Shown one piece after another: positions 2,515 through 59,156 of a stretch of 59,156 nucleotides of DNA (within the stretch, counting starts at the first letter, position 1; every line of letters begins with the position of its first letter). This DNA comes from Ignavibacteria bacterium (GTDB lineage: Bacteria > Bacteroidota > Ignavibacteria > Ignavibacteriales > Ignavibacteriaceae), in the NCBI GenBank assembly GCA_011052365.1, contig DRJC01000200.1, positions 1 through 59,156 on the forward strand, in the 5' to 3' direction. The position numbers and the translations under genes are program-made. The notes below the pieces were generated by a model that was not told where the DNA came from, made no database searches, and saw only the letters and a list, made by a program, of their open reading frames with translations.

Positions 2515-2523
2515 TTTCGATTT

Positions 2524-3879: not shown

Positions 3880-3895
3880 GACAACACATAAAACT

Positions 3896-3951
3896 CACTA
3901 CTCTTTATGCAAATAAAGTAACTTTGTATAAGTAACTCTTGCAAAATTGCA
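3896..3951 (+). promoter_or_regulatory. Candidate upstream activator sites for the NtrC-type regulator (two related copies)
   Basis: CACTACTCTTtaTGCAAA at 3896-3913 and AACTCTTGCAAAA at 3934-3946; the second runs into the perfect palindrome TGCAA-aa-TTGCA (3940-3951). The 12-mer ACTCTTGCAAAA recurs at 6214-6225 in the paralogous intergenic region. Confidence 0.45.
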
Positions 3952-4038
3952 AAATATTTGTAACTCTCTCTAAAAAGAAATCCTCCTAACTAATTTAATA
4001 ATAATAAATTACATAGATTTAGCTTTCCATTTTAATAA

Positions 4039-4054
4039 TGGCACAGTGGTTGGT
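4039..4054 (+). promoter_or_regulatory. Sigma-54-like -24/-12 promoter candidate (TGGCAC-N5-TTGGT)
   Basis: TGGCACagtggTTGGT has GG-N10-G spacing as in the TGGCAC-N5-TTGC consensus, but the -12 position reads GG instead of GC. It lies 70 nt upstream of the ATG at 4109 and directly downstream of an NtrC-type activator gene. Confidence 0.4.
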
Positions 4055-4108
4055 ATGCACCAAAAAAATATATTGTAATAATAAACAATAATAACATCAG
4101 AGGATAAA

Positions 4109-4537
4109 ATGAAAAAAACAAGATCGAAACTAACCATTTTAACAGCCGTAACTGTTGCAATAGTAGCCATATTGTTCTTTTCAATTGATAATTTTGGAAA
4201 TCCGGGCGGAAGTAATTGGAAAGTACCCGGTGTAGCTAAAAAACTTAAAAACCCTGTTCCTTCTTCAAAATTATCCATCAAATTAGGTGAAAAATTATTC
4301 GTACAAAACTGTGCAACCTGCCATGGAGAAAGTGGTGTCGGTGACGGGCCCGTAGGTAAATTCTTAGGAAAGAAAGTTGCCGATTTAACATCTAAGGCAG
4401 TACAGAGTCAAGTAGACGGTGTGATATTTTATAAACTTACCAAAGGCAGAGCTCCGATGCCCTCTTATAAAACAATATTAAATACAAAACAACGCTGGTC
4501 TGTTATTAATTACATTAGAACACTTAAATCTAACTAA
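4109..4537 (+). CDS. Class I monoheme c-type cytochrome, N-terminally membrane-anchored or secreted
   Basis: N-terminal hydrophobic helix, single CATCH heme motif, downstream Met ligand region (GRAPMPSY). AGAGGA Shine-Dalgarno before the ATG. Clear paralogue of the 6390-6869 product. Confidence 0.85.
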   Translation: MKKTRSKLTILTAVTVAIVAILFFSIDNFGNPGGSNWKVPGVAKKLKNPVPSSKLSIKLGEKLFVQNCATCHGESGVGDGPVGKFLGKKVADLTSKAVQSQVDGVIFYKLTKGRAPMPSYKTILNTKQRWSVINYIRTLKSN

Positions 4538-4560
4538 TCATAAATACGGAGAAAAATAAA

Positions 4561-5688
4561 ATGAAAAGAATTCGTTTTATACTGTTTTCGGCATTGGCAA
4601 TTCTCATTGGCTCTGCTACTCAAAATCCGGCTCAAGAAAGTACTGACTTACAGAGTCAAATTCAAAAATTTCAAGCAGGTACTCATCAGTTTATGCTTGC
4701 TGGATATGCAGTTACAAGCTTTATAAAGGAAGAAGGCAATCCTTCACAATTTGAAAGTGCCTTTATGCCAATATTCTTATTTAAGGCAACAGATAAAGTA
4801 TTTTTTGAAGGTGAATTAGAAATAGAAATTGAAGATGGAGCTCAAGAAATGAATCTTGAATATGGGCAAATATTGTATTTATTTAGTGATTACCTGATTT
4901 TTGGTGCCGGAAAATTTCTTAATCCCACAAACTATTTTATTGAAAGGTTACATCCGGCTTGGATAAATAAAATGCCTGACAAACCTTTAATGGTACATCC
5001 GGGTACAAGAATGCTGGCCAGCCAACATTTAGGATTTCAATTAAGGGGTGCAGTACCTATTAAGGGTAGCAAAATAGAATACTCTTTCTTTGTTGGGATG
5101 GGACCTGTATTAGACCCTGCAACAGGTGAAGTAACATTTACAAATTATGGAGATAATAACGATAACAAATCTATTGGCGGAAGAATAGGTTTTATACCTA
5201 TTCCAAAATTTGAAATCGGATATGGTTTTGAAGTTGCTAAAGTAGGCGATGCAAATACAAATTTAGAAAGTGTTAAAGCAATAAACAATGTAGTAGATTT
5301 TTCATATGCTAAAGAAATAAAAGGACTAAAGGGCGGAGTAGATTTAAAAGCTCAATTAGTATGGCTAAATATTGATAATCCAAATATTGCACCATTAATT
5401 TACAGTAATGACTCATTTGGCGGTTATGCTCAAATTTCGTTCCGTCCATACAACTCACCAAGTGAATTCTTTCAAAATTTAGAATTCGTTTATCGTTATG
5501 ACTGGAGTGACAAACCGAATAAAGCTCCATCAAATGAATATATTAAAAGGTCTGGTTTTGGCATTAATTATTGGTTAACTTCAAGCAGCCTATTTAAATT
5601 TGCTTATGAAACATCTAATATCGATTTACCTAACGGAAGTACAACTAATGAACACCGTTTTATTGGTCAAGTTGCATTTGGTTTTTAA
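4561..5688 (+). CDS. Putative outer-membrane beta-barrel porin, no heme motif
   Basis: Signal peptide (ALAILIGSATQNPAQE), alternating hydrophobic/polar strand pattern, Gly/Tyr/Asn-rich. C-terminal ...GQVAFGF ends in Phe (OMP signature). No CxxCH. Confidence 0.6.
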   Translation: MKRIRFILFSALAILIGSATQNPAQESTDLQSQIQKFQAGTHQFMLAGYAVTSFIKEEGNPSQFESAFMPIFLFKATDKVFFEGELEIEIEDGAQEMNLEYGQILYLFSDYLIFGAGKFLNPTNYFIERLHPAWINKMPDKPLMVHPGTRMLASQHLGFQLRGAVPIKGSKIEYSFFVGMGPVLDPATGEVTFTNYGDNNDNKSIGGRIGFIPIPKFEIGYGFEVAKVGDANTNLESVKAINNVVDFSYAKEIKGLKGGVDLKAQLVWLNIDNPNIAPLIYSNDSFGGYAQISFRPYNSPSEFFQNLEFVYRYDWSDKPNKAPSNEYIKRSGFGINYWLTSSSLFKFAYETSNIDLPNGSTTNEHRFIGQVAFGF

Positions 5689-5708
5689 TTATTTAGGAGA
5701 AAACAAAA

Positions 5709-5984
5709 ATGAAATTGAAAAGGAAATACATAACCGGTTTTTTACTTGTTTTAGGCTTTTTTGTAGTAGTGGCTATTTCAGGTTGTGCATCTACAACTGA
5801 CATTGCCGATAGATCGGGTGCTGAATTATGGGGCAATAACTGCGCTAGTTGCCATAATATCCGTCCACCCCAGACTTTAACAGACGCACAATGGGAAGTT
5901 GCTGGAATTCATATGAGAACAAGAGCTAATCTTACAGGCGTAGAAACTAATAAAATAATAGAATTCTTAAAAACGGCTAACTAA
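5709..5984 (+). CDS. Small monoheme c-type cytochrome lipoprotein
   Basis: Lipobox VAISGC, single CASCH motif, 91 aa. Starts 20 nt after the barrel gene. Confidence 0.75.
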   Translation: MKLKRKYITGFLLVLGFFVVVAISGCASTTDIADRSGAELWGNNCASCHNIRPPQTLTDAQWEVAGIHMRTRANLTGVETNKIIEFLKTAN

Positions 5985-6010
5985 TTAGGGATTCTATTTG
6001 ACTCAAAAAG

Positions 6011-6040
6011 ACCGGGTGACAAAACCATCCGGTTTTTTTA
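6011..6040 (+). terminator. Rho-independent terminator closing cytochrome/porin module 1
   Basis: ACCGG...CCGG stem followed by TTTTTTTATTTT. Confidence 0.6.
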
Positions 6041-6157
6041 TTTTAAATGAGTGAATCTATTTTAACCATAATGGGTATTATGTTTTTGCAGTTAATACTT
6101 CTAACAAATAAAAAAAATGTATTAAAAAATTACTCCGGTAAATACGGCAATAATTAA

Positions 6158-6177
6158 AAAGGTTATTGATAACCTTT
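6158..6177. promoter_or_regulatory. Perfect 9-2-9 palindrome (possible protein-binding site)
   Basis: AAAGGTTAT-tg-ATAACCTTT in the intergenic region upstream of module 2. Confidence 0.3.
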
Positions 6178-6209
6178 GTATTTGAATATAAACTTCCTCA
6201 TTAATGCCC

Positions 6210-6235
6210 CACTACTCTTGCAAAAATGCGAGAGT
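6210..6235 (+). promoter_or_regulatory. Candidate upstream activator site, paralogous to 3896-3951
   Basis: CACTACTCTTGCAAAA contains the same 12-mer ACTCTTGCAAAA (6214-6225). It is embedded in the imperfect inverted repeat ACTCTTGC-aaaaat-GCGAGAGT (6214-6235). Confidence 0.45.
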
Positions 6236-6319
6236 AAAAAGAAAACACAATATCAGCATCCGTAACTATTTTATATAATAAACAATAACTTACGAAATAA
6301 TACTATTCTTTTATTATAT

Positions 6320-6335
6320 TGGCATTAAAGTTGAT
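6320..6335 (+). promoter_or_regulatory. Sigma-54-like -24/-12 promoter candidate (TGGCAT-N5-TTGAT)
   Basis: Same block spacing as 4039-4054. Lies 106 bp downstream of the shared 12-mer and exactly 70 nt upstream of the ATG at 6390. The -12 position reads GA rather than GC. Confidence 0.4.
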
Positions 6336-6389
6336 TAATAGTAAGGTTAGTTAATAATTTTTCACAAATAAATATTGAGTGTAAATAAA

Positions 6390-6869
6390 ATGAACAAAAA
6401 AACGGTCTCAAGAAGTTTGCTAATATTGGCTGCAACTATAATATTCTTTGCGTCCCCAACAATAAATGCGCAGACCAATAATTGGAAAGCTCCAAAAATT
6501 GCTGATAGACTTAAAAACCCATTAAAAGGAGATCTTTCAGCGGTTAAAAAAGGCAAAGAATTATTTGATATAAATTGTGTTACTTGCCACGGTGCAAAAG
6601 GATTAGGAGATGGTATTGCAGCATCAAGTTTATTTCCAAAACCTGCAAATTTAACTTCTAAAGAAGTTCAAAAACAATCTGACGGTGCTATTTATTATAA
6701 GATTACAAAGGGAAAAAACGCCATGATATCATGGAAGTATTCATTATCAGAAAAACAACGCTGGCAATTAGTTAGTTACATAAGGGAATTAGTACCTCAT
6801 AAGGCAAAGGTTAAAGTTAAAAAATCAACAGCCAAAAATGTAAAACTTAAAAAGAAAACTAAGATATAG
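6390..6869 (+). CDS. Class I monoheme c-type cytochrome (paralogue of 4109-4537) with a Lys-rich C-terminal tail
   Basis: Signal peptide ending INAQT, CVTCH motif, NWKAPK...LKNP... aligns with the 4109 product. The ORF track starts at TTG 6375; ATG 6390 is preferred because it reproduces the 70-nt promoter-ATG spacing of the paralogue. Confidence 0.85.
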   Translation: MNKKTVSRSLLILAATIIFFASPTINAQTNNWKAPKIADRLKNPLKGDLSAVKKGKELFDINCVTCHGAKGLGDGIAASSLFPKPANLTSKEVQKQSDGAIYYKITKGKNAMISWKYSLSEKQRWQLVSYIRELVPHKAKVKVKKSTAKNVKLKKKTKI

Positions 6870-6928
6870 TTTGGAACGAAACATAAAAATGAACTCGGAA
6901 AGAAATAAAAATTAATAGGAGATAAAAA

Positions 6929-8263
6929 ATGAATAATATTTATAAAACCAAAATTCAATTTATAGCTATTGCTGCTCTTATACTATCTTTTATAATTCCA
7001 GAAGAAGCATCAGCCATACCAAGTTTCTCCCGCCAAACAAATCTGCCTTGCAGCACTTGTCACTACAAATTTCCCGAATTAAAACCTTTCGGCAGATTAT
7101 TTAAATTGAACGGTTATACAATGACAGGTGTAGCATCTATTAAATCAGCCAATAATGACAAAATAAATCTCCAACTCTTAAAATCACTACCAATTTCGGT
7201 AAGTTTTCAAACATCATATACTTCAGTAGCTTCAAAAGTTCCTGACAATCAGAACAACACGTTTGAATTTCCACAAGAATTAGGTATCTATTTTGCAGGA
7301 GAAATTACTCCTCATATTGGTGCTTTTATTCAAATTAGTTATGAAGATCAAGAAGGTTCAATTGGATTAGATATGACGGATATTCGTTACGCTAATCATA
7401 CATCTATTGACAATAAAGATTTATTATACGGAGTTAGTTTAAACAACTCACCAACAATGCAAGACGTTTGGGGTACCGTACCAATGTGGTCTTATCCATT
7501 TGTTGGTTCAGGCACAGCTCCTACACCAATGATCAGCACCATGTTAGAGTCTATGATGAACGTATTGGGTTTTGGAACGTATGTGTTGTATGACAACTTC
7601 ATATACGCTGAAGTAAGTGCTTATCGTTCTGTTGTACAGGGAGGACCTATACCTCCAAATGCATCTTCGTCTAATACAATCAGTGCCCTTGCACCATATT
7701 GGAGATTAGCGTTACAGCATCAATGGGAAAATCAATATATTGAAGTTGGAACATACGGAATGGCTCCACAGATTTTTCCTAGTGGGATTACAGGAAAAAA
7801 AGATAATTATACAGACTTCGCATTAGATGCACAATATGAGAACTCGTTCAATAACGGTAGTCTAATAACACATTTTAATTACATATATGAAAAACGGAAT
7901 TTAAATGCCACTTATGCTTCCGGTGGTTCGGCTAGCTTATCAAATACTCTTAATTCTCTAAAAGTTGATGCGGGTTATAACTCTAATGCGGGTTACTCAT
8001 TTACTGTTGGGTACTTCAATATAAATGGAGATGCCGATAACAAATTATACGCACCTGCCCAGGTGGAAGGAAGCGTTAGCGGTTCGCCGAACAGTAACGG
8101 ATTTACATTGCAGGCAACTTTAGCCCCTTGGCTTAATACTCAATTCTCATTGCAATATGTATTGTATAATAAATTTAACGGTTCAAGCGATAATTACGAT
8201 GGGAACGGAAGAAATGCATCCGATAATAATACTTTGTATGCAAATGTATGGCTTATGTTCTAA
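6929..8263 (+). CDS. Fused monoheme cytochrome-porin (Cyc2-like architecture)
   Basis: Signal peptide (…EEASA), then IPSFSRQTNLPCSTCHYKFPELKPFGRLFKLNGYTMTG with a single CxxCH at residues ~41-45. About 390 aa of Gly/Tyr/Asn/Ser-rich beta-strand-like sequence follows, ending ...NVWLMF (terminal Phe). Confidence 0.65.
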   Translation: MNNIYKTKIQFIAIAALILSFIIPEEASAIPSFSRQTNLPCSTCHYKFPELKPFGRLFKLNGYTMTGVASIKSANNDKINLQLLKSLPISVSFQTSYTSVASKVPDNQNNTFEFPQELGIYFAGEITPHIGAFIQISYEDQEGSIGLDMTDIRYANHTSIDNKDLLYGVSLNNSPTMQDVWGTVPMWSYPFVGSGTAPTPMISTMLESMMNVLGFGTYVLYDNFIYAEVSAYRSVVQGGPIPPNASSSNTISALAPYWRLALQHQWENQYIEVGTYGMAPQIFPSGITGKKDNYTDFALDAQYENSFNNGSLITHFNYIYEKRNLNATYASGGSASLSNTLNSLKVDAGYNSNAGYSFTVGYFNINGDADNKLYAPAQVEGSVSGSPNSNGFTLQATLAPWLNTQFSLQYVLYNKFNGSSDNYDGNGRNASDNNTLYANVWLMF

Positions 8264-48450: not shown

Positions 48451-48461
48451 ACTAACTACTG

Positions 48462-48535
48462 TGGGCTCTAGAGGAGTCGAACCTCTGACCTTCTGCACGT
48501 CAAGCAGACACTCTAACCAACTGAGCTAAGAGCCC
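48462..48535 (-). tRNA. tRNA-Val (anticodon GAC)
   Basis: Minus strand begins GGGCTCTTAGCTCAGTTGGTTAGAG.... Anticodon stem TCTGC/GCAGA with loop TTGACGT. T-arm AGAGG-TTCGACT-CCTCT. Acceptor GGGCTCT/AGAGCCC. No encoded CCA. Confidence 0.92.
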
Positions 48536-48673
48536 AGAACTTTAAAAAGAAAAAGGTAAAATTAAAATCCCAAAGGAATGCCTTTCCATAGGACACCTTT
48601 ACCAAAGGCAATCCTTCGGAACGGATCGACAAAAGTAAAGATTTACGTTTCTAATTTTTTTTCTTGTATACTG

Positions 48674-48759
48674 TACCGAGGGCCGGACTCGAACCGGCAC
48701 GGGAAAAAATTCCCACTGGATTTTAAGTCCAGTGCGTCTACCAATTCCGCCACCCCGGC
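48674..48759 (-). tRNA. tRNA-Leu (anticodon TAA), long variable arm
   Basis: Minus strand begins GCCGGGGTGGCGGAATTGGTAGACGC.... Anticodon stem CTGGA/TCCAG with loop CTTAAAA. Variable arm GGGAATTTTTTCCC. T-arm GCCGG-TTCGAGT-CCGGC. Confidence 0.92.
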
Positions 48760-48988
48760 AAGAAATTAGATAATCAAAAAATTTAAGGAACTCTTTTACC
48801 TATTTTACTTTTTTACAATCAATTTTAGCTTGTAAATATAGAGAAATGTTCATTGTTTTTCAAGATTTCTTGGTTTTATAAAAAACACAGATTTAACGGT
48901 AAGAAAACATTCTTATAATGATTGCCGATTATTTTTATTCTCTACGAATTTCACTAAATTATAGCACATTTTTATTTAATATGATTTT

Positions 48989-49831
48989 ATGTCGGATGAA
49001 TTAAACAATAATACCGTCTTGTCCATATCATCTTATCTTAAAGATAAGAGAAACTTCAATCTTAAATATCTATGCCCTTCCTTAATAAACAGAAGATTAA
49101 ACCGGCGTCTGCTTGAACTAAATATAAAATCTTCTAAAGAATATTATAATTATTTGCTTGATACAGATGATGAAATAGATGAACTAATAAATTCCTTAAT
49201 GATAAACTATTCTACATTTTTTAGGAATTCTTTATTATTTGAATATATCGCTAACATAATATTACCTGAAATTCTAACACAAAAGGACATAGGGAAAGGA
49301 AAAAGCTTAAGAATTTGGTCTGTCGGTTGCTCCAGCGGTGAAGAACCATATTCAACAGCAATTTTGATTAATGAATTTATTCAAAAAAATGATATTGATT
49401 TTGAATTTAATTTGTTTGCCACAGATATTGATACGGATTCATTAACTAAAGCAAAAAAAGGTACGTATAGTTTTGAAGCAGTAGAAAGTGTGAAATATGG
49501 TCTACTTCAAAAATATTTCAAAAAAGATGATGGATTATTTTATCTGTCGGATGATATTAAAAATATGGTTTCTTTTTCAAAATATGACGTTTTTGATAAG
49601 AAAGGATTCTCACCCCCTCAAAGTATCTTTGGAGATTTTGATATTGTTATTTGTCGTAATTTATTGATTTATTACAACCAGGCCTCTCAAGAAAAAATTT
49701 GTGATAAACTTTCATGTTCGATTTCTAATAACGGTTATTTAATTCTTGGCAAGGTTGAACATCTTTCTAATAATATTGCTTCATATTTTAAAATGGAAAA
49801 CGAATATTTACATTTATATAAGAAAAAATAA
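48989..49831 (+). CDS. cheR: CheR-type protein-glutamate O-methyltransferase (orphan)
   Basis: NYSTFFRN (TxFFR), SAM-binding IWSVGCSSGEEPYSTAILI, FATDID...L.KAKKG.Y, DIVICRNLLIYYN. Confidence 0.88.
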   Translation: MSDELNNNTVLSISSYLKDKRNFNLKYLCPSLINRRLNRRLLELNIKSSKEYYNYLLDTDDEIDELINSLMINYSTFFRNSLLFEYIANIILPEILTQKDIGKGKSLRIWSVGCSSGEEPYSTAILINEFIQKNDIDFEFNLFATDIDTDSLTKAKKGTYSFEAVESVKYGLLQKYFKKDDGLFYLSDDIKNMVSFSKYDVFDKKGFSPPQSIFGDFDIVICRNLLIYYNQASQEKICDKLSCSISNNGYLILGKVEHLSNNIASYFKMENEYLHLYKKK

Positions 49832-49855
49832 GTTGAATTTTAACATTTTAACAAT

Positions 49856-51028
49856 ATGAGATTACAAAACCTTAATACAAGAAACAAACTTCTTCTTTCA
49901 TCTCTGATAATAATTGGGATTACATTGTTAATCTATTTTTTATCCGCGAAACAAGAAATGAGAATGAGTCCTCTTGGTCAACCGACAAATTTACCCAACC
50001 ACCCAATTTATTCTCAATACATTTACACCCAAAATGATACCACAATAAATATTGGTTTTCAGCCTTTATACTTACCAACCGGAATTATATTTGAAGTTAT
50101 AAAACGCGATAGAATTCTTCAGAATGTCCTTAAACGTTTAGGAAAGAAAATTGCATATTTTCCATACATCAAGGGTGCCGATATTAACTTTTTCTTAAAA
50201 CAAAAAGAACTGGTTGCCGGGGTTGGCGGTGATATGCCGGCTTTATCTGCCTCATCGGAGTTCGATATCATTATACCGGTGATTTTACAGAAAGGAAATG
50301 TCTCTATCGTTTCAAGCCAGCCGATGTTAACAAATGATATGAAGGGAAAACGTATCGCATATCCCTTCGGATCAATCTCACATTATTTTCTTTTAGACCA
50401 ATTGCATGATGCGGGAATTAAGGATAACGAAGTGACATTAATTCCCATGGATGTTAGGTTTATGGCAGATGCATTACACAATAACAAAATTGATTTGTTT
50501 TCTGCGTGGGAACCGATTGTGGCTTCAGCACTAAAACAATATCCTAAGTTTTTTATGACCTATAGAAGAATATCAACCGGGTATTTATATTTCTCAAGAA
50601 AATTTGCCGTAAACAATCCGAAAGCTGTCAATCATATTCTTGCCGCTGTTATTCGTGCATTTACCTGGATGAAAAAAGATAGGAGGAACCTTCTCTTGGC
50701 TTGTCAATGGAATTTAACGGAGATGGAAAAATTAACCGGAGGAAAAGACATATTAGACACAGAAGAAATTGCCGACCTTGCACTAAAGGATATTTTAGGA
50801 TATAATTCTAAGTTCTCAATTGTTATAAATGAAAATGATACACAAATAAACAGTCCACTTCATCAAGAATTCAGATTCCTTAAAGGATTAAACAAAGTGC
50901 CTGCAAGCAGCCGATGGGATAAAGTAAGTAAAAGCTTTAATCGAAATTTGATCTTAAAAATTTTTAAACAACCTAAAAAATATAATCTGAATAAATTTGA
51001 CTATGACACTGCTTTTAAGGAGCATTAA
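49856..51028 (+). CDS. Membrane-anchored periplasmic-binding-protein-like protein (NMT1/NitT/TauT-type SBP fold)
   Basis: Single N-terminal TM (LLLSSLIIIGITLLIYFL). About 330 aa with an SBP-like pattern (INIGFQPLYLP..., GGDMPAL, AYPFGSISHYFL, FSAWEP). No permease or ATPase genes nearby. Confidence 0.6.
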   Translation: MRLQNLNTRNKLLLSSLIIIGITLLIYFLSAKQEMRMSPLGQPTNLPNHPIYSQYIYTQNDTTINIGFQPLYLPTGIIFEVIKRDRILQNVLKRLGKKIAYFPYIKGADINFFLKQKELVAGVGGDMPALSASSEFDIIIPVILQKGNVSIVSSQPMLTNDMKGKRIAYPFGSISHYFLLDQLHDAGIKDNEVTLIPMDVRFMADALHNNKIDLFSAWEPIVASALKQYPKFFMTYRRISTGYLYFSRKFAVNNPKAVNHILAAVIRAFTWMKKDRRNLLLACQWNLTEMEKLTGGKDILDTEEIADLALKDILGYNSKFSIVINENDTQINSPLHQEFRFLKGLNKVPASSRWDKVSKSFNRNLILKIFKQPKKYNLNKFDYDTAFKEH

Positions 51029-51312
51029 TATGGATTATCATTTGCAGTCGATAATTTTATTTGAAATAAAAAAACAAGGTGAGTTAGTTGATCATTTAAC
51101 AGTTACACTTGATGAAAAGTACATAAACGAAGATATTTATAAAAATAAAAATCGGACATATTGGAGATCATAAGATTACTAAATGGATATATAAAACATC
51201 TTACTACGAGGAAGAAAGAGAAGATAGTTGAGTAGTTGATTTGTATTACTTACCAAATTACCTACTAACCGATTTAACAACTCTACTACGGCTAATTTAT
51301 TAGGAGTTTCAA

Positions 51313-54300
51313 ATGAAGAAATTTGCATTCAAAAGCATCAAAACACGTTTAACTTTTTGGTTTCTTTGTGTTGCGTTAATACCGTTATCAATAATTTTAG
51401 TAATTACATATACACAAAGAGCAAAAGCTATTGAAATTAGAACATTTGAAAAACTTACGGCAATACGTGACTTAAAAGTAAAACAGTTGGAGTCTTGGAT
51501 TGATGAAAGAATAGGAGATATGAAAACAGCTTCTTCCAATTATAGCCTTTCTAATTTGGAAGATATTATCAATAAAAATTATCTGAATAAAAATGATATT
51601 AAAATACTTAATAATGACAGGCAGATATTAATTCGTTATTTGGAAAATTATTTATCTTATGATGAGTTTTTCATAATCAATCCCCTCAACGGGGAAATTA
51701 TTATATCTACCAATACAAGTTCTGAAGGTGAAGACAAATCGAATAATACTTATTTCTTAAAGCCGATGCAATCTCAAGAACTTTTTATTAAGGATATTTA
51801 CTATTCAAAAGAAAAATCAAAAGTAACCATGACATTTTCCATACCTATATTCAGCACCAAATATAATGATAACCATATCATAGGCATATTGGTTGCACGT
51901 ATTGACCTGGAACATTCTCTTTTTAACCTGCTGAGGGATAGGGTTGGATTAGGTAAAACCGGTGAAACACTTATTGTGAACAAAAATGTGATGGCTTTGA
52001 ATGAACTTCGCTGGTATGAAAATGCACCGCTTAATTTAAAGATAAATGCCCAACCTGCTGTAAGTGCAGTAAATGGTGAAACCGGAATTAAGATTTCAAC
52101 AGATTACCGCAATGTGAAAGTTTTGACTGCATATACATATATACCTGAAACCGGTTGGGGCTTTGTAAGCAAACAAGACCTTTACGAATTAAATGCTCCA
52201 ATGCGTAAAACGATTTCTGATTTCTTCATCTTATTTCTTGTAACAGCCCTCCTAATTTACATCGTCACCTTTTTTATCAGTAAGACGATATCAACACCCA
52301 TAGTAAAACTATCTTCCCACGCTAATAACATTGCAAAAGGCAACTTTGATTCTAAAATTGACATACAAACTTTTGATGAAACCGCTACACTAACAAATTC
52401 CATAAACTCAATGACATCCTCTCTTACTCAAAATATTATTGTCTCAAATAGCCAAAATATTTTGTATTCGGCTCTTGTAGAAGAAAATGAGATTACTGAT
52501 TTTGCAAAATCTTTATTACTTGAGTTGATGGATTTCAGCAACTCTGAAGTAGCTGCTTATTTTAAACTTAATGATGCGGGGACAAAATTTTATAAATTAA
52601 TTTCTTTTGGTTTAGAAGAAGAAGGCAATAATTCTTTTGATGTCCGGAATTATGAAGGAGAATTCGGAAAGGTATTAGCTGAAAAAAAAGTAATACTGCA
52701 ACAGGATATACCGGATGATACAAGGTTCTTGTATAAGACTGTAGCCGGTAATATAATTCCCAAGAACATACTTATTATCCCTCTTATTGCCGACAACGAA
52801 ATTGACTCATTAGTTGTGCTCGGCAGTCTTAATAAATATTCCGATTCATTTATTACGATAGTAAAGGAAACAACACCGTTTGTTAATTCAGCCCTTGGCA
52901 GAATTTTAGAGATAATTAAAGTAAGACACTTCACAAAGGAATTAGAGAATGCAAATATTAACCTTCAAGAAAAGTCAGAAGAACTACAAGTGCAAGCTGA
53001 AGAATTGCAAAGTCAGTCCGAAGAACTGAATGAACAGAACACCGAATTAGAAGCTCAAAAAAAATTAGTGGAAGAATCAAGTAGATTAAAAAGTCAATTC
53101 TTAACAAATATGAGTCACGAACTCAGAACCCCCCTAAATTCTGTTATTGCTTTGTCAAGAGTACTGGTGGATCAAACAAAAGACAAACTTTCAGATGAAG
53201 AGATTAATTATCTGCGGGTGATAGACAGAAACGGTAAAAATCTTCTTAATTTAATAAATGATATTTTAGACCTTTCAAAAATAGAATCGGGTAAACTTGA
53301 TTTTTATTTTGAAGACACAAATCTGTATGAAATATTAAATCTTGCCGTTGATAATTTAGAACCATTATCTGCCGAAAAAAAGATAGAGCTTGTTAAAAAA
53401 ATTCCTTCCGATATCACACATATTCAAACAGACCAAAAAAGATTTCTGCAAGTTATTGAAAATATTGTTGGCAATGCAATCAAATTTACAGATAAAGGGA
53501 GTGTTACAGTAACTGCAAGAAACGATAATGAAAATTTATATGTTGAAGTTATTGATACAGGTATTGGAATTTCCAAAACCGACATCCAACATATTTTTGA
53601 TGAATTTATTCAGGCAGACGGTTCATCAACAAAACAATTTGAAGGAACAGGATTGGGACTTACAATATCTTATAAATTAATAAAGGAACTTGGTGGAAAT
53701 TTAGAAGTAGAAAGTAAACTTGGGAAAGGATCAAAATTTACGATTATACATCCTATAAAATTATCGGATAATATCAGAAATTTTAAATCCCGACAAAGTA
53801 TCGATAACGGTACGCAATTAAATAGTAAAATATCTTATGAAAAAGCTGATTTGAATATTAATTTAACCGGAAAAAGAATTTTACTTGTTGAAGACAATGA
53901 TGTAGCAATAATTCAAATCAAAAATTTGCTGGAAGATGAAGGCCTGATAATAGACTCGGTAGTGAATGTAAAAGAGGCATTAAAATACATTAAGAATACT
54001 GTCCCCGATGGATTTATACTTGATATTATGATGCCTGGAATTGATGGAATAGAATTCTTACAAAAAATAAGGACATTCGCATTTACAAAAACTATCCCGG
54101 TTATTATGTTAACGGCTAAGGATCTGACACATAAAGAATTAGCGACAATTAAAGGAAATAATGTATATCAATTAATTTACAAAGGGGATATAAATAAGAA
54201 AGAGCTTGTTTCACTTGTGAAAGGAATGTTGAAAATTTCTACAAAAAATTCAGGAACAAAAGATAAAGAGAAAACAGTATCACTTATTTCTCCAAAAGCA

Positions 54301-54696
54301 AAAAAGAGAGGTAAAGTAAAAAGTAGCGATATCCCTAAAATATTAGTTGTTGAAGATAATCATGACAATATGATAGTTATAGAAGCTCTTCTAAAAAATA
54401 AATGTAAGCTTTTGAAAGCTTTTGATGGGAAATCCGGGTTAGAACTTGGTAAACTAAAGAAACCTGATTTAATATTAATGGATATTACATTACCTAAAAT
54501 AGGTGGAATAACTGTAATGAAAAAGTTAAAAAGTGATCCGGCAACCAGCAACATCCCTATTATTGCTTTAACTGCTCACGCAATGACAGGTGACAAAGAG
54601 AAATTTTTGTCTGCCGGATTTGATGATTATATAAAAAAGCCTATTGATGCTGATGATTTTATTGATCATATAAATAAATGGGTAAATGTTTCTTGA
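51313..54696 (+). CDS. Hybrid sensor histidine kinase: TM - periplasmic Cache-like domain - TM - HAMP - GAF-like - E/Q-heptad coiled coil - HisKA - HATPase - REC - REC
   Basis: Two TM helices flank ~270 aa. HAMP (STPIVKLSSHANNIAKGNFD). H-box FLTNMSHELRTPLNSV. G2 GTGLGLTIS. Two receivers (ILLVEDNDV...LDIMMPGIDG; ILVVEDNHDN...MDITLPKIGG). TAGGAG SD. Confidence 0.92.
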   Translation: MKKFAFKSIKTRLTFWFLCVALIPLSIILVITYTQRAKAIEIRTFEKLTAIRDLKVKQLESWIDERIGDMKTASSNYSLSNLEDIINKNYLNKNDIKILNNDRQILIRYLENYLSYDEFFIINPLNGEIIISTNTSSEGEDKSNNTYFLKPMQSQELFIKDIYYSKEKSKVTMTFSIPIFSTKYNDNHIIGILVARIDLEHSLFNLLRDRVGLGKTGETLIVNKNVMALNELRWYENAPLNLKINAQPAVSAVNGETGIKISTDYRNVKVLTAYTYIPETGWGFVSKQDLYELNAPMRKTISDFFILFLVTALLIYIVTFFISKTISTPIVKLSSHANNIAKGNFDSKIDIQTFDETATLTNSINSMTSSLTQNIIVSNSQNILYSALVEENEITDFAKSLLLELMDFSNSEVAAYFKLNDAGTKFYKLISFGLEEEGNNSFDVRNYEGEFGKVLAEKKVILQQDIPDDTRFLYKTVAGNIIPKNILIIPLIADNEIDSLVVLGSLNKYSDSFITIVKETTPFVNSALGRILEIIKVRHFTKELENANINLQEKSEELQVQAEELQSQSEELNEQNTELEAQKKLVEESSRLKSQFLTNMSHELRTPLNSVIALSRVLVDQTKDKLSDEEINYLRVIDRNGKNLLNLINDILDLSKIESGKLDFYFEDTNLYEILNLAVDNLEPLSAEKKIELVKKIPSDITHIQTDQKRFLQVIENIVGNAIKFTDKGSVTVTARNDNENLYVEVIDTGIGISKTDIQHIFDEFIQADGSSTKQFEGTGLGLTISYKLIKELGGNLEVESKLGKGSKFTIIHPIKLSDNIRNFKSRQSIDNGTQLNSKISYEKADLNINLTGKRILLVEDNDVAIIQIKNLLEDEGLIIDSVVNVKEALKYIKNTVPDGFILDIMMPGIDGIEFLQKIRTFAFTKTIPVIMLTAKDLTHKELATIKGNNVYQLIYKGDINKKELVSLVKGMLKISTKNSGTKDKEKTVSLISPKAKKRGKVKSSDIPKILVVEDNHDNMIVIEALLKNKCKLLKAFDGKSGLELGKLKKPDLILMDITLPKIGGITVMKKLKSDPATSNIPIIALTAHAMTGDKEKFLSAGFDDYIKKPIDADDFIDHINKWVNVS

Positions 54697-54724
54697 AATT
54701 TATTAAATACATAAGTCCGTGTAG

Positions 54725-55888
54725 AATAAAGGGAATATGTTATGTCTAAAATATTATTGATTGATGACAATGCAGATAATTTAATTTCACTATCTGCAAC
54801 ATTAAAAGATCTCATCCACACATCTACTATTTTAACTGCCAAATCCGGCCCGGAGGGACTGAAGATTGCCTCGGCGGAAATGCCGGATGTTATAATTTTA
54901 GACATTCGTATGCCTGGAATGGACGGCTACGAAGTGCTCGGGTTACTTAAGGCTAATGTAAAAACTAAAGTTATCCCCGTGATACTTTTAACGGCAAACT
55001 ATACAGACATTAAAAGCAAGGTGCGGGGATTAGAAGCAGGTGCAGATGCTTTCCTATCAAAGCCAATAGATAAAAACGAGCTTATTGCACAGGTTAAAGT
55101 GATGCAAAGGATAAAAAAAGCAGAAGATATTTTGCGAAAAGATAATATATTATTAGAGACTGTTGCAAAAAATTCTTCTATGAAATTTGATTTTACTCAA
55201 AGAAAATATCAGAATGTTTTTGATAACAACATTGCCGGTATTCTTGAAACAACATTCGACGGTGAAATAATTAATTGCAATACAGCACTTGCAAAAATGT
55301 TTGGTTTTAAAAATATTGAGGAAGTTTTTGAGCACAAAACGATTCCTTTTTACAAGCACATTTCCGATAGAGAAAAGATTATTTCGTCTTTAAAAAAGGA
55401 TAATGAACTAATAAATTATGAAGTTGAGCTTGTTGACAAAAACGGCAAAACAGTAGACGCTTTAATAAGGTGCTTCAATATTAATAATCAATCTGTTTTA
55501 TCTTTTCTAATTGATATTACTGATATAAAAAGGCTACAAGAGCAACAACACCAATACGAACATATTGTATCCAGTTCCACTGATATGATAGCGCTTCTCG
55601 ATAAAAATTTTACATACCTTGCCTCTAACTCCGCATATCTTGAAGCATTTGGTAAAACTTCAGAAGAACTAATTGGAGCTACCTTGGAAGATGTGTTTGG
55701 TAAGGAGATATTTGACACAGTGATAAAACCAAATGCATTGCGTTGTTTATCCGGCGAAGTAATTAATTATCAAGAGTGGTTTAATTTTCCAATTAGAGGA
55801 AAGTCTTATATGGATGTTGGTTACTTCCCATATAAAGACAAAAAGAATAAGATTAAAGGTTTTGTTGTAAATGCACGAGATATTACAG
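54725..55888 (+). repeat. Copy A of a ~1.16 kb tandem segmental duplication (RBS + REC + first two PAS modules)
   Basis: Collinear with 57889-59052 at a constant offset of 3164 nt, no indels noticed. About 90% or more identity by eye, highest over the REC domain. Confidence 0.85.
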
Positions 55889-57813
55889 AACATAAAAAAA
55901 CTGAAGATGCTCTTAAAGAAAGTGAACAACATTATAGGGATTTATTTAATAACATAAACGACTTGATATGTATTCATGATTTAGAAGGTAAAATCTTGTC
56001 TATGAATCCTGCAGCAGAAAGAGATATCGGCTATAAAATAAGCGAAGTATTAAACAGAAATCTAAGTGAGTTATTAGCCCCTGAAGTAAGAAGTCAATTT
56101 AATGATTACCTTATAAAAATAAAAAAGGAAGGCAAAGCTAAAGGCTTAATGCTCATTCAGACGCGCACGGGTGAAAAAAGAATTTGGGAATATGATAACT
56201 CTATTGTAAAAACGGAAGGTAAAGGACAATTTATCAGTGGTGTAGCTAGGGATGTGACGGATGTAAAAGAAGCAGAAAAAGCAATGCAAGAAAGCGAAGA
56301 GCGGTACCGCTCCCTATTTGAAGATAGTCTAACCGGTGTTTATTTATCATCATTTGATGGCGAATTGTTGGACTGTAATGACGCTTTCATAAAAATGTTT
56401 GGCTATGTTTCTAAAGAAGAACTTAAAAGAGTGCCGACTAATCAATATTATGAAAATAAAAATGATAGGAATATTTTCTTAAAAGAGATAAAAGAGAAAG
56501 GGGCTTTGGTGAACTATGTAGAAAAATTGAAAAGGAAAGACGGCTCTTTTATATGGACACTTCAGAATGTTCGTCAGCTTAATAATAGGATACAAGGCAC
56601 CGTAGTAGATATATCTGCAGATATAGAATCCAGGAATGCACTGATTGAAGCAAAAGAAAAAGCAGAAGAAGCAAATAAGTTAAAATCAAACTTCCTTGCA
56701 AATATGTCTCACGAGCTGAGAACACCCATGGTCGGTATTATAGGATTTATAGAAATCTTAGAGGAAGAAATAGAAAAACCGGACTTAAAAGAATATGCAT
56801 CCTTTATCCACGAAGCCGGCAACAGGTTGATGGAGACATTAAACTTAATATTAAACCTTACAAAAATTGAAGCTGAAAAAATAAACATTGAACTATCAAG
56901 AATTGATATTATCCGGAATATAAAAAAAATAATGTCAATATTTGATAAAATGGCTGATAGAAAGAATATATATTTAAGATTTGAAAGTGATATTAAAAAA
57001 TTTGAAACTGAAACAGATGAAAAAATGTTTAACCAAATAATTAGCAACTTGGTAAACAATGCCGTTAAATATACGGACAAAGGCGGAGTAGCGGTTTCTG
57101 TTAATAAAATTAAAAACGATACTTATTTAGAAATAAAGGTGAAAGATACCGGTATTGGTATTCCAAAAGATAAGCAAGAATTAATTTGGGAAGATTTTAG
57201 ACAAGTAAGTGAAGGCGAGACAAGAATATATGAAGGTACCGGTTTGGGATTAACAATAACAAATAATTTTGTTCATAAACTTGACGGGAATATAAAATTA
57301 GAAAGTGAACTTGGTAAAGGTTCGACTTTTACTTTACTGCTCCCTATCCGAACAAAATCTATTTCAGTTAAAACCAAAGAGCCGGCTTTTGATTTTAACA
57401 AAACAACCGATACACCAAAAATAAAAGACACACAAGAAAAACTAAAAACCCTGCTTTATGTTGAAGACGATAAGATATCCTTAGAAGTAATCCCACTCTT
57501 TCTAAAGGGTTGTTACAATGTTGAATGTGTAAAAAAAGGTGAAGCTGGAATTGAAAAAGCCAAAAAGAAAATATACGACGGTATACTGATGGATATTAAC
57601 CTGCATACCAGAATGGATGGCGTTCAAGCAGCTGAAAAGATTAAAGAAATGGAAGAGTATAAGGAAGTACCAATAATCGCTGTAACCGCATACGCTATGG
57701 TTGGAGACAGAGATAAATTTTTAGAAACCGGATTTACAAATTACATATCAAAACCGTTTTCAAAAAATGATATTATTGAATTGTTGAATAAAACAATAAA
57801 GGAAAAGAATTAA
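54742..57813 (+). CDS. Hybrid histidine kinase: REC - 4x PAS - HisKA - HATPase - REC
   Basis: N-terminal REC (ILLIDDNADN...LDIRMPGMDG). Repeated PAS modules (…NARDITEHKK, …ARDVTDVKE). H-box FLANMSHELRTPM. GTGLGLTIT. C-terminal REC (LLYVEDDK...MDINLHTRMDG). Confidence 0.92.
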   Translation: MSKILLIDDNADNLISLSATLKDLIHTSTILTAKSGPEGLKIASAEMPDVIILDIRMPGMDGYEVLGLLKANVKTKVIPVILLTANYTDIKSKVRGLEAGADAFLSKPIDKNELIAQVKVMQRIKKAEDILRKDNILLETVAKNSSMKFDFTQRKYQNVFDNNIAGILETTFDGEIINCNTALAKMFGFKNIEEVFEHKTIPFYKHISDREKIISSLKKDNELINYEVELVDKNGKTVDALIRCFNINNQSVLSFLIDITDIKRLQEQQHQYEHIVSSSTDMIALLDKNFTYLASNSAYLEAFGKTSEELIGATLEDVFGKEIFDTVIKPNALRCLSGEVINYQEWFNFPIRGKSYMDVGYFPYKDKKNKIKGFVVNARDITEHKKTEDALKESEQHYRDLFNNINDLICIHDLEGKILSMNPAAERDIGYKISEVLNRNLSELLAPEVRSQFNDYLIKIKKEGKAKGLMLIQTRTGEKRIWEYDNSIVKTEGKGQFISGVARDVTDVKEAEKAMQESEERYRSLFEDSLTGVYLSSFDGELLDCNDAFIKMFGYVSKEELKRVPTNQYYENKNDRNIFLKEIKEKGALVNYVEKLKRKDGSFIWTLQNVRQLNNRIQGTVVDISADIESRNALIEAKEKAEEANKLKSNFLANMSHELRTPMVGIIGFIEILEEEIEKPDLKEYASFIHEAGNRLMETLNLILNLTKIEAEKINIELSRIDIIRNIKKIMSIFDKMADRKNIYLRFESDIKKFETETDEKMFNQIISNLVNNAVKYTDKGGVAVSVNKIKNDTYLEIKVKDTGIGIPKDKQELIWEDFRQVSEGETRIYEGTGLGLTITNNFVHKLDGNIKLESELGKGSTFTLLLPIRTKSISVKTKEPAFDFNKTTDTPKIKDTQEKLKTLLYVEDDKISLEVIPLFLKGCYNVECVKKGEAGIEKAKKKIYDGILMDINLHTRMDGVQAAEKIKEMEEYKEVPIIAVTAYAMVGDRDKFLETGFTNYISKPFSKNDIIELLNKTIKEKN

Positions 57814-57837
57814 AACCACCGGAACATTTACACTGTC

Positions 57838-57882
57838 ATTGCGAAAGAACAGAGCTACTGAAGCAATCTGTCTTTGTTTTTT
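57838..57882 (+). terminator. Weak hairpin plus T-rich tail after the second kinase
   Basis: ATTGC...CAG-agcta-CTG...GCAAT followed by CTGTCTTTGTTTTTTA. Confidence 0.3.
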
Positions 57883-57888
57883 ATTTGA

Positions 57889-59052
57889 AATAATGGAAAT
57901 ATGTTATGTCTAAAATATTACTAATTGATGATAATGCTGATAATTTAACTTCTCTATCTGCAACTTTAAAAGATCTCATCCACACATCTACTATTTTAAC
58001 TGCCAAATCCGGCCCGGAGGGACTGAAGATTGCCTCACTGGAAATGCCGGATGTTATTATTTTAGATATTCGTATGCCTGGGATGGACGGCTACGAAGTA
58101 CTCGGGTTACTTAAAGCTAATGTGAAAACTAAAGTTATACCCGTGATACTTTTAACGGCAAACTACACAGACATCCAAAGCAAGGTGCGGGGATTAGAAG
58201 CCGGTGCAGATGCTTTCCTTTCAAAACCTATAGACAAAAACGAACTTATTGCACAGGTTAAAGTGATGCAGAGAATAAAAAAAGCAGAAGATATGTTACG
58301 AAATGAAAATATATTATTAGAGTCCGTTGCGAAAGATGCTTCTATGAAATTTGATTTTAGCCAAAAGAAATATCAAAATGTTTTTGATAACAATATTGTC
58401 GGTATAGTTGAAACGACATTTGACGGTAAAATAATTAATTGCAATACTGCACTTGCAAAAATGTTTGGTTTTAAAAATATTGAAGAAGTTTTAGAACACA
58501 AAACAATCCCCTTTTACAAGCACATTTCCGATAGGGAAAAGATCATTTCGTTTATAAAAAAGAATAATGAACTGATAAATTATGAAATTGAGCTTGTTGA
58601 CAAAAACGGCAAAACAATAAATACTTTAATAAGGTGCTTTAATATTAATAATCAATCTATTTTATCTTTTCTAATTGATATTACTGATATAAAAAGACTA
58701 CAAGAGAAACAACACCAATATGAACATATTGTATCCAGTTCAACTGACATAATGGCGCTTCTCGATAAAAATTTCACATACCTTGCTTCTAATACTGCAC
58801 ATCTTGAAGCGTTAGGTAAAACCTCAGAAGAAATAATAGGACATACCGTAGAAGAATTATTTGGAAAAGAATTTTTTGAAGAAGTAATAAAACCATATGC
58901 TTTGCGTTGTTTATCCGGGGAAGTAATTAATTATCAAGAGTGGATGGATTTGCCAATTAGAGGGAGGTGTTATTGGGATGTTAGTTATTTTCCGTATAAA
59001 GACAAACAGAACAAAATTAAAGGTTTTGTTGTAAATGCACGAGATATTACAG
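57889..59052 (+). repeat. Copy B of the ~1.16 kb tandem segmental duplication
   Basis: See copy A. Similarity stops abruptly after ...AATGCACGAGATATTACAG (55888 / 59052). Confidence 0.85.
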
Positions 59053-59156
59053 TACGCAAGCAGGCGGAAGAAAAACTATTGAAGAGCGAATATTTTTTAA
59101 GTGAAGCACAAAGGATTGCCCATATAGGTTCTTATGAACTTGATGTTGCTACCGGA
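57906..59156 (+). CDS. Paralogous REC-PAS hybrid histidine kinase; 3' end lies outside the window (absent from the ORF track)
   Basis: ATG at 57906 opens a frame of 417 codons with no stop up to the window end. The product MSKILLIDDNADNLTSLSATLKD... is near-identical to the 54742 product for ~382 codons. Confidence 0.9.
   Translation, partial: MSKILLIDDNADNLTSLSATLKDLIHTSTILTAKSGPEGLKIASLEMPDVIILDIRMPGMDGYEVLGLLKANVKTKVIPVILLTANYTDIQSKVRGLEAGADAFLSKPIDKNELIAQVKVMQRIKKAEDMLRNENILLESVAKDASMKFDFSQKKYQNVFDNNIVGIVETTFDGKIINCNTALAKMFGFKNIEEVLEHKTIPFYKHISDREKIISFIKKNNELINYEIELVDKNGKTINTLIRCFNINNQSILSFLIDITDIKRLQEKQHQYEHIVSSSTDIMALLDKNFTYLASNTAHLEALGKTSEEIIGHTVEELFGKEFFEEVIKPYALRCLSGEVINYQEWMDLPIRGRCYWDVSYFPYKDKQNKIKGFVVNARDITVRKQAEEKLLKSEYFLSEAQRIAHIGSYELDVATG

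Follow-up and report, generated by a model that had tools for sequence, protein, structure and literature searches.

Contig DRJC01000200.1 of an Ignavibacteria bacterium (GenBank assembly GCA_011052365.1) carries three co-directional genes that lie head to tail: one for a CheR-type protein-glutamate O-methyltransferase, one for a membrane-tethered substrate-binding protein (SBP) and one for a hybrid sensor histidine kinase, here named HK1. Two further hybrid kinase genes, HK2 and HK3, come next. CheR lies 1.5 kb upstream of HK1 on the same strand and is separated from the SBP gene by 24 nucleotides (nt; 49832-49855). The stretch of DNA analysed, referred to below as the window, comprises 59,156 nt of this metagenome contig, and statements on the presence or absence of genes cover these 59 kb. 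Across all plausible open reading frames (ORFs) of at least 100 amino acids (aa) in the window, a Pfam scan gave no match to MCPsignal, CheW, CheA-type, CheB_methylest, ABC_tran or ABC permease domains, and Pfam scans likewise found no SpoIIE/PP2C, STAS or sigma-factor genes there. An earlier note, made from the letters alone, had read the locus as a CheR with TxFFR, GCSSGEEPYS and CRNLLIYY motifs, a single-pass NMT1-type protein 24 nt downstream, a Cache-HAMP-GAF-HisKA-HATPase-REC-REC kinase and two REC-PAS hybrid kinases, with no gene for a methyl-accepting chemotaxis protein (MCP), CheA, CheW or CheB in the window and none for an ABC permease or ATPase nearby. Motif inspection (STFFRN, VGCSSGEEPYS and ICRNLLIYY are present) and Pfam agree with this description throughout. 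The locus is best explained as a sensor module of the RsbK/RsbM kind that works independently of chemotaxis and in which the window CheR probably methylates the S-helix of HK1.

The HK1 helix that leads from the GAF domain to the phospho-accepting histidine contains four heptads in which a glutamate precedes leucine (E557, E564, E571 and E578). AlphaFold predicts a single unbroken helix (residues 511-621, predicted local distance difference test score (pLDDT) ~90) that holds both this array and the phospho-acceptor H602. The GAF fold is seen in the AlphaFold (AF2) model, and the corresponding Pfam GAF_2 match (1.4e-4) is below cut-off. The register between the array and the H-box is free of indels in 19 related kinases. 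Among 44 unique helices, the 'c' glutamates at H-45, H-38, H-31 and H-24 are kept in 39, 40, 35 and 42, respectively, and the heptad 'd' leucines in 40-43; E557, E564 and E571 belong to a small set of nearly invariant positions in this region. There is no Pfam family for the heptad array. PF28159 and PF28019, which are precomputed on some homologues, were rejected as array families because they are weak generic coiled-coil matches (CEP89, HmpF). The two HK1 receivers carry the acceptor aspartate motifs ILDIMMP and LMDITLP; the kinase of a related locus (L105) has four receiver domains.

The pairing of CheR with this kinase class recurs widely. CheR stands beside such a kinase in more than 20 loci from at least five phyla. 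The closest case (L001) has a CheR homologue that is 74% identical to the window CheR and is followed directly by a 1127-aa dCache-HAMP kinase. In a metagenome-assembled genome (MAG) of Desulfobacteraceae (L003), the genes that follow a CheR with 44% identity encode an NMT1-like protein (45% identity) and two hybrid kinases, the first dCache-GAF and the second REC-GAF. The background set, 80 genomic CheR loci obtained from a genome-collection scan with the CheR-clade alignment, consists mostly of distant CheRs with generic CheR motifs (best identity 40% among the matches listed) and includes at least three more loci in which CheR precedes a GAF kinase: L004 (Bacteroidetes MAG), L005 (Nitrospiria MAG) and L032 (Syntrophobacteraceae MAG). 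CheR also lies upstream of the same kinase class in many metagenome loci. The arrangement of CheR, SBP-like gene and Cache-GAF kinase, whose co-occurrence across genomes the earlier note had proposed to check, recurs in unrelated contigs.

Within loci retrieved by their SBP, CheR accompanies 7 of 8 kinases with a GAF domain and heptad helix versus none of 12 others (Fisher p=1e-4), although some loci are near-duplicates, so that these counts are not fully independent and the true independent number is smaller. When loci were retrieved by the kinase first, all three GAF-helix-HisKA homologues on long contigs (four loci) adjoin CheR. CheR-kinase pairs also occur without an SBP, and their sensor domains vary between 4HB_MCP, PilJ and dCache; because of this, the CheR linkage follows the GAF/S-helix module. 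CheR-kinase adjacency tracks the GAF domain plus heptad helix, and neither the sensor domain nor the SBP. In a neighbour-joining tree, the kinase-linked CheRs form one clade apart from che-operon CheRs and CheR-PAS fusions. This single CheR-kinase clade and the overlapping synteny lead us to recognize two conserved units in the window, namely SBP with dCache receptor and CheR with GAF/S-helix kinase. The linkage of CheR to the kinase is not due to chance.

The neighbourhood of these pairs is also informative. A REC-first hybrid kinase lies 3' of the HK1-type kinase in L003, L004, L101, L105, L168 and L169 as in the window, and HK2 is, on this gene order, likely to be a downstream relay partner of HK1. 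Directly upstream of CheR and kinase, L005 (8410-9951) and L032 (1438-2781) encode an HDOD protein and the MCP glutamine deamidase CheD, as separate genes in the former (Nitrospiria) and as a fusion in the latter (Syntrophobacteraceae), which hints that the kinase helix is deamidated or demethylated in some lineages. Variants of the arrangement were also noted. The L096 kinase (2860-5880), which lies 3' of CheR and SBP, has an array that stops after two heptads (NQELEAQTEE), where a PAS domain and another type of HisKA take over; this suggests a recombinant in which CheR was retained and most of the array lost. In L130 (8311-15047; with L171), an RsbM-type CheR that is 25% identical to the window CheR lies beside an SBP and a dCache kinase, and this kinase carries a long 'SKYKSEFLANMSH'-type helix. 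A poly-HAMP kinase of the 'SKYKSEFLANMSH'-helix class has a CheR fragment and, 2 kb downstream, a CheB_methylest gene. In the 456-aa protein P0241, the first 35 residues match CheR_N and are followed by GAF-HisKA-REC; the CheR N-terminal helix may truly be fused to a kinase here, or else the protein is an artefact of gene calling or assembly.

The heptads themselves keep company with CheR. Six-frame ORFs of all fetched loci (1.43 M aa) were scanned for at least three consecutive [EQ]E[LIM] heptads, and 45 runs were found. For 42 of them, a CheR gene is encoded at most 3.7 kb upstream in the same orientation, and 32 of these 42 lie inside CheR-PAS_10-array-PAS or CheB-CheR-PAS-array-kinase fusions. 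The other three occur in same-class kinases on contigs whose upstream sequence is absent or incomplete. One heptad run in a probable MCP acts as an internal positive control. In the CheR-PAS_10 and CheB-CheR-PAS fusions, two PAS domains flank an array of 5-11 perfect heptads, NEELQST/NEELETT (L015 9881-11851; L010 9248-14605; ~30 further loci). Treating the heptads as merely the usual kinase coiled coil is insufficient, because similar arrays occur in CheR-fusion proteins that do not belong to this kinase family.

A precedent for methylation of such a helix exists. RsbM of Bacillus cereus, an orphan enzyme of the CheR type, methylates the S-helix of the kinase RsbK, as assayed with 14C-labelled S-adenosylmethionine (PMC4574943). 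RsbK has the architecture CHASE3-HAMP-GAF-S-helix-HK-CA-REC, its signalling is repressed by methylation together with an inhibitory receiver domain, and 127 RsbK-like kinases have been reported from 10 phyla (PMC4574943). PMC12848376 attributes the genomic association of RsbK with CheR to de Been 2011. Among the kinase-first loci, L167 encodes CHASE3, GAF-HisKA, HATPase-REC, CheR, REC-PP2C, ferritin-like, sigma factor, RsbW-like and STAS (RsbV-like) products and, to judge from this gene content, is a Bacillus cereus-type sigB cluster. HK1 aligns with its RsbK-type fragment (P0266) at 39% identity (E 3e-50) over GAF-S-helix-DHp, with the EELQxQ heptads in register, and is shorter by exactly 21 residues (three heptads) between array and DHp. 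The earlier note had proposed that CheR acts directly on a histidine kinase, and this idea gains from the conserved adjacency, from heptad runs that occur almost only beside or inside CheR genes, and from the alignment with the RsbK S-helix together with the RsbM precedent (PMC4574943). Its list of known CheR substrates, confined to MCPs, was incomplete; it omitted both RsbM-RsbK (PMC4574943) and the response regulator PhoP, which Salmonella CheR methylates at Glu/Asp residues (PMC8546571).

The PhoP example raises the alternative that CheR targets another site of the kinase system, either a receiver domain or the GAF domain, and that the glutamate heptads are a structural coiled coil only. 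HK1 and its neighbours offer at least five receiver domains for such a reaction, and one sub-clade with a linked CheR has degenerate EE pairs. However, methylation of RsbK has been assigned to the S-helix (PMC4574943), EEL arrays accompany CheR even in the receiver-less CheR-PAS_10-array-PAS proteins, and the 'c' glutamate positions are among the most conserved of the helix region. On balance, a target outside the helix appears unlikely, and the HK1 S-helix is the probable substrate.

The enzyme has canonical CheR features. It matches the Pfam CheR family (PF01739) with 166.6 bits (cut-off 27, E 6e-49), and its N-terminal domain matches CheR_N (PF03705) with 25.1 bits, slightly below the 27-bit cut-off. 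In this N-terminal all-alpha domain, a basic helix of CheRs touches the acidic helix of the substrate; the RR..RR helix of the window CheR (INRRLNRRL) aligns with that of solved CheRs. The catalytic residues of Salmonella CheR are R98 and Y235 (PMC3447774); the FFR arginine and the IY tyrosine of the window CheR align with these two residues, the FFR (R79) and LIYY (Y227/Y228) motifs being opposite 'ffrea' and 'miyf' of structure 1BC5. The CheR-clade alignment shows no variation at F77, F78 and Y228 and almost none at R79. The pentapeptide-binding loop of the beta-subdomain includes Q182, R187, G188, G190, G194 and R197 (PMC2577667). The window CheR has a 4-residue deletion in this Gly-rich loop (RGTGPHEG in Salmonella), as has Bacillus subtilis CheR, and the HK1 C-terminus (...KWVNVS) is not an xWxxF tether. 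By these sequence features, the window CheR resembles the pentapeptide-independent chemotaxis CheRs, and among solved structures B. subtilis CheR (5FTW, E 4.7e-30) comes closest to it. The NCBIfam CheR equivalog NF007902 scores 118.9 bits, far below its cut-off of 435, and NCBIfam gives only generic kinase and CheR matches, which do not reach their cut-offs. The closest named CheR relative is from a Melioribacteraceae MAG (64% identity). RsbM of L167 is 27% identical to the window CheR (E 4e-21) and groups with the CheRs of L127 and L130, outside the window clade.

This canonical character bears on another alternative, in which CheR serves ordinary chemotaxis by methylating MCPs whose genes lie in other parts of the genome, and its proximity to the kinase reflects only co-regulation or chance. 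Canonical CheR features are present, the enzyme is closer to structurally solved chemotaxis CheRs than to RsbM, and the absence of MCPs is seen for a 59-kb window that is one part of the genome. In L105, moreover, a CHASE3-MCP and CheW (1682-4682), with no CheA, lie ~5 kb upstream of the CheR-SBP-kinase genes. Against this stand the recurrence of CheR-kinase adjacency in at least five phyla and its specificity for one kinase class, the separation of the kinase-linked clade from che-operon CheRs, and the lack of MCP, CheA, CheW and CheB in the window and in most related loci; the MCP hairpin motif was not found in CheR-kinase loci other than L105. An ordinary chemotaxis role is considered quite improbable, and methylation of the HK1 S-helix is the preferred explanation.

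The SBP is anchored by a single hydrophobic segment (residues 10-32) and matches Pfam NMT1 at 1.8e-10 (41.6 bits, cut-off 20.5). Its AF2 model (pLDDT 88.3) has TauA (6SSY) and SsuA (3KSJ/2X26) as top Foldseek matches (TauA: E 1e-16, template-modelling score 0.73 by target). The family is tightly conserved, with an invariant GGDMPA motif, and modest in size, as 250 representatives out of 1.84 billion reach E<=1e-30; some members of ~600 aa (P0156, P0157 and P0159) have ~210 extra N-terminal residues. An SBP-first survey covered 80 metagenome loci, and 45 with enough downstream sequence were scored. A dCache receptor lies directly 3' of the SBP gene in 36 of these 45; the receptors are kinases of several types and one HD-GYP protein. 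SBP-stimulated dCache kinases are known in principle from LuxP-LuxQ and HptA-HptS, and TorT-TorS is a further binding-protein-dependent sensor kinase system (reviewed in PMC8050422). A literature search found no description of the present pairing of a TauA-like SBP with a dCache receptor. The proposed role of a tethered co-sensor for the dCache kinase, which the earlier note had put forward, is supported by the position of the gene, the lack of a transporter partner and the parallel with LuxP-LuxQ and HptA-HptS (PMC8050422). It is very improbable that the SBP is instead a stray or shared part of an ABC transporter with its permease and ATPase elsewhere. Its fold and Pfam family are indeed those of the TauA/SsuA transport proteins, and source annotations call its relatives 'ABC transporter substrate-binding protein', but ABC genes are absent from the window, the gene precedes dCache receptors of both kinase and HD-GYP type, and the protein falls far under the NCBIfam cut-offs (SsuA_fam 65 versus 163.5; TauA model 43 versus 304). 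The membrane anchor and a C-terminal extension of ~110 residues are, in addition, absent from solved SsuA and TauA structures. The SBP was also considered as a CheR substrate and rejected because it is extracytoplasmic except for ~9 N-terminal residues.

Coordinates are collected in Table 1.

Table 1. Genes and protein features at the CheR-SBP-HK1 locus (positions are those of the window).
Feature	Position	Strand	Description
tRNA-Val(GAC) and tRNA-Leu(TAA)	48461-48759	-	between thrS and CheR promoter region
CheR	48989-49831	+	280 aa; CheR-type protein-glutamate O-methyltransferase, resembling the pentapeptide-independent type
Binding protein (SBP)	49856-51028	+	390 aa; membrane-anchored, TauA/SsuA-like; proposed extracytoplasmic co-sensor
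HK1	51313-54696	+	1127 aa; RsbK-like hybrid sensor kinase, TM-dCache-TM-HAMP-GAF-S-helix-HisKA-HATPase-REC-REC (TM, transmembrane)
TM segments of HK1			residues 11-35, 299-327
dCache_1 of HK1	51478-52170	+	residues 56-286; Pfam 3.6e-13, 50 bits, cut-off 45
HAMP and GAF of HK1	52273-52863	+	residues 321-372 and 393-517; Pfam HAMP 9.8e-09
S-helix heptad array of HK1	52972-53058	+	KSEELQV QAEELQS QSEELNE QNTELEAQ
HisKA and HATPase_c of HK1	53089-53754	+	residues 593-660, 707-814; Pfam 2.6e-18, 5.8e-27
Phospho-acceptor H602 of HK1	53116-53118	+	H-box
Two REC domains of HK1	53872-54672	+	about residues 854-973, 1009-1120; Response_reg 3.5e-43, two stretches
HK2	54742-57813	+	REC-PASx4-HisKA-HATPase-REC hybrid kinase (Pfam); cytoplasmic, TM segment not found
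HK3	57906-59156	+	HK2 tandem paralogue, cut by window end; Pfam REC and PAS

The gap between the SBP and HK1 genes (51029-51312) is unusually long at 284 nt, compared with ~30-70 nt in related loci. Public annotation calls a 47-aa ORF within it, and no convincing promoter or terminator was found there. Promoter and terminator scans of 48700-58000 perform at chance level and are uninformative on operon structure. Upstream (5') of CheR, the opposite strand carries the two tRNA genes and then thrS-infC-rplT-pheST. HK3 is 86% identical to HK2 over its first 395 aa, and a public assembly of the same region (L084) annotates a single gene of 1391 aa that runs from where HK2 begins to the end of the contig; some assemblies may have collapsed or wrongly joined the HK2/HK3 repeat. 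Positions 793-8263 hold another two-component pair, unrelated to this locus and made up of a PAS kinase and a sigma-54 activator, and after it two c-type cytochrome genes and two ORFs without a Pfam match.

A mechanism can be proposed from these components. The membrane-tethered SBP would catch a small ligand on the outer face, its fold being that of sulfonate/taurine binders, and the loaded SBP would dock onto the dCache domain of HK1. The signal would then pass through the second transmembrane segment, HAMP and GAF into the one long helix that continues into the phospho-acceptor helix (H602). In the cytoplasm, CheR with S-adenosylmethionine would methylate the glutamate before each leucine (E557, E564, E571 and E578), so that the four (N/S/A)-E-E-L-Q-x-Q heptads would serve as a methyl-accepting array. 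Charge neutralization would alter packing of the dimeric helix and set the basal bias of HK1, and if HK1 behaves like RsbK, methylation and the C-terminal receivers may jointly keep it off until a stimulus arrives. Phosphoryl groups would move to the receivers of HK1 itself, to those at the N-termini of HK2 and HK3, or to both. We infer methylation at this locus, its sites, the sign of its effect, docking of the SBP on dCache and the route of phosphotransfer from comparative sequence data; the exact sites and the sign of the effect are held with less confidence than S-helix methylation itself.

Several points weigh against this interpretation. Without a linked esterase, reversibility has no explanation. 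The window CheR is, by its sequence, not an RsbM orthologue; its closer likeness to canonical CheRs means that MCPs could also be substrates, and Melioribacteraceae relatives may well encode chemotaxis, to which the MCP and CheW genes of L105 can be added. One locus (L095) has a kinase of this class without CheR. The sub-clade of L003, L105, L107, L108 and L136, which keeps CheR, SBP and kinase, has degenerate EE pairs with one or two 'c' glutamates left, and the heptad motif is not an exact fit to the MCP methylation consensus. The redundancy of the loci noted above also belongs here. The earlier note had suggested a chemotaxis-independent adaptation module. The part of this suggestion in which CheR is directed at a kinase is supported. 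Reversible, MCP-like adaptation finds no support, since the locus has no linked esterase gene, and deletion of the sole CheB of B. cereus was without effect on the RsbK pathway (PMC4574943).

Kinase methylation by a CheR-type enzyme is already known as a concept from RsbK-RsbM and is little studied. To our knowledge, it has been shown in one organism only, Bacillus cereus. New here are a different CheR lineage, a dedicated tethered SBP and a different output. The pairing of helix and methyltransferase in further phyla (including Desulfobacterota, Bacteroidota and Nitrospirota), with other sensors and outputs and a further CheR lineage, suggests a general mechanism rather than one peculiar to Bacillus. 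E557, E564, E571 and E578 are concrete candidate methylation sites, a likely substrate is indicated for the CheB-CheR-PAS fusion proteins, and a conserved pair of TauA-like tethered SBP and dCache receptor is defined. For genome annotation, an orphan cheR beside such a kinase should not be taken as evidence of chemotaxis. More tentatively, and as a possibility that we rate somewhat below an even chance, the (N/S/A)-E-E-L-Q array could be a portable methyl-accepting module, distinct from the MCP domain, that is used by at least three CheR lineages (the window type, the RsbM type and the type fused in CheB-CheR-PAS proteins). If true, this would imply a second receptor-methylation system parallel to chemotaxis in many phyla, CheB-CheR-PAS fusions would methylate their own array, and the window would encode a chemoreceptor-like sensor (SBP, dCache and methylation) in which a phosphorelay output replaces motility control.

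Among known systems, RsbK-RsbM (PMC4574943; Chen et al. 2012 and de Been et al. 2010/2011, cited therein and in PMC12848376) is similar in its sensor-HAMP-GAF-S-helix-HisKA-HATPase-REC architecture, its adjacent CheR homologue, its lack of a linked esterase and its independence from chemotaxis. It differs in the sensor, which is CHASE3 in RsbK and dCache plus a separate tethered SBP in the window, in the number of receivers (one in RsbK, two in HK1) and in the helix, which is 21 residues shorter in HK1. The enzymes belong to different CheR lineages (27% identity), and the window has REC-PAS hybrid kinases in place of the RsbY PP2C, RsbV/RsbW and sigma B output. MCP adaptation by CheR/CheB has in common with the window the enzyme family and a glutamate every seven residues on the exposed face of a long signalling helix after HAMP. 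MCP-type sensors also occur, with dCache in the window and 4HB_MCP or PilJ in relatives. In contrast to MCP systems, the window lacks an MCP signalling domain, CheA, CheW and CheB, and the receptor is the kinase itself. The (N/S/A)EELQxQ motif lies on a predicted two-helix coiled coil and is not the MCP consensus; there is no pentapeptide tether, and the tether-binding loop is deleted.

The CheB-CheR-PAS and CheR-PAS_10 fusions of Actinobacteria, Cyanobacteria and Bacteroidota have the same heptad register (a = N, b/c = EE, d = L), with the array just after the CheR-PAS_10 part. They differ in that enzyme and array form one polypeptide, often with CheB, in belonging to a separate CheR clade, and in lacking a transmembrane sensor, GAF domain and binding protein. 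CheR-PhoP is another case of a non-MCP CheR substrate inside a two-component system, but there the substrate is a receiver/DNA-binding regulator and the enzyme is the chemotaxis CheR, with neither a dedicated gene linkage nor a heptad array. On the sensory side, LuxP-LuxQ, HptA-HptS and TorT-TorS resemble the window in that a kinase whose sensor is dCache-like has next to it a gene for a dedicated extracytoplasmic binding protein, which lacks its own transporter. The binding-protein families differ, that of the window being NMT1/TauA-like, and the known binding proteins are soluble or lipid-anchored, whereas the window SBP is anchored by a transmembrane helix.

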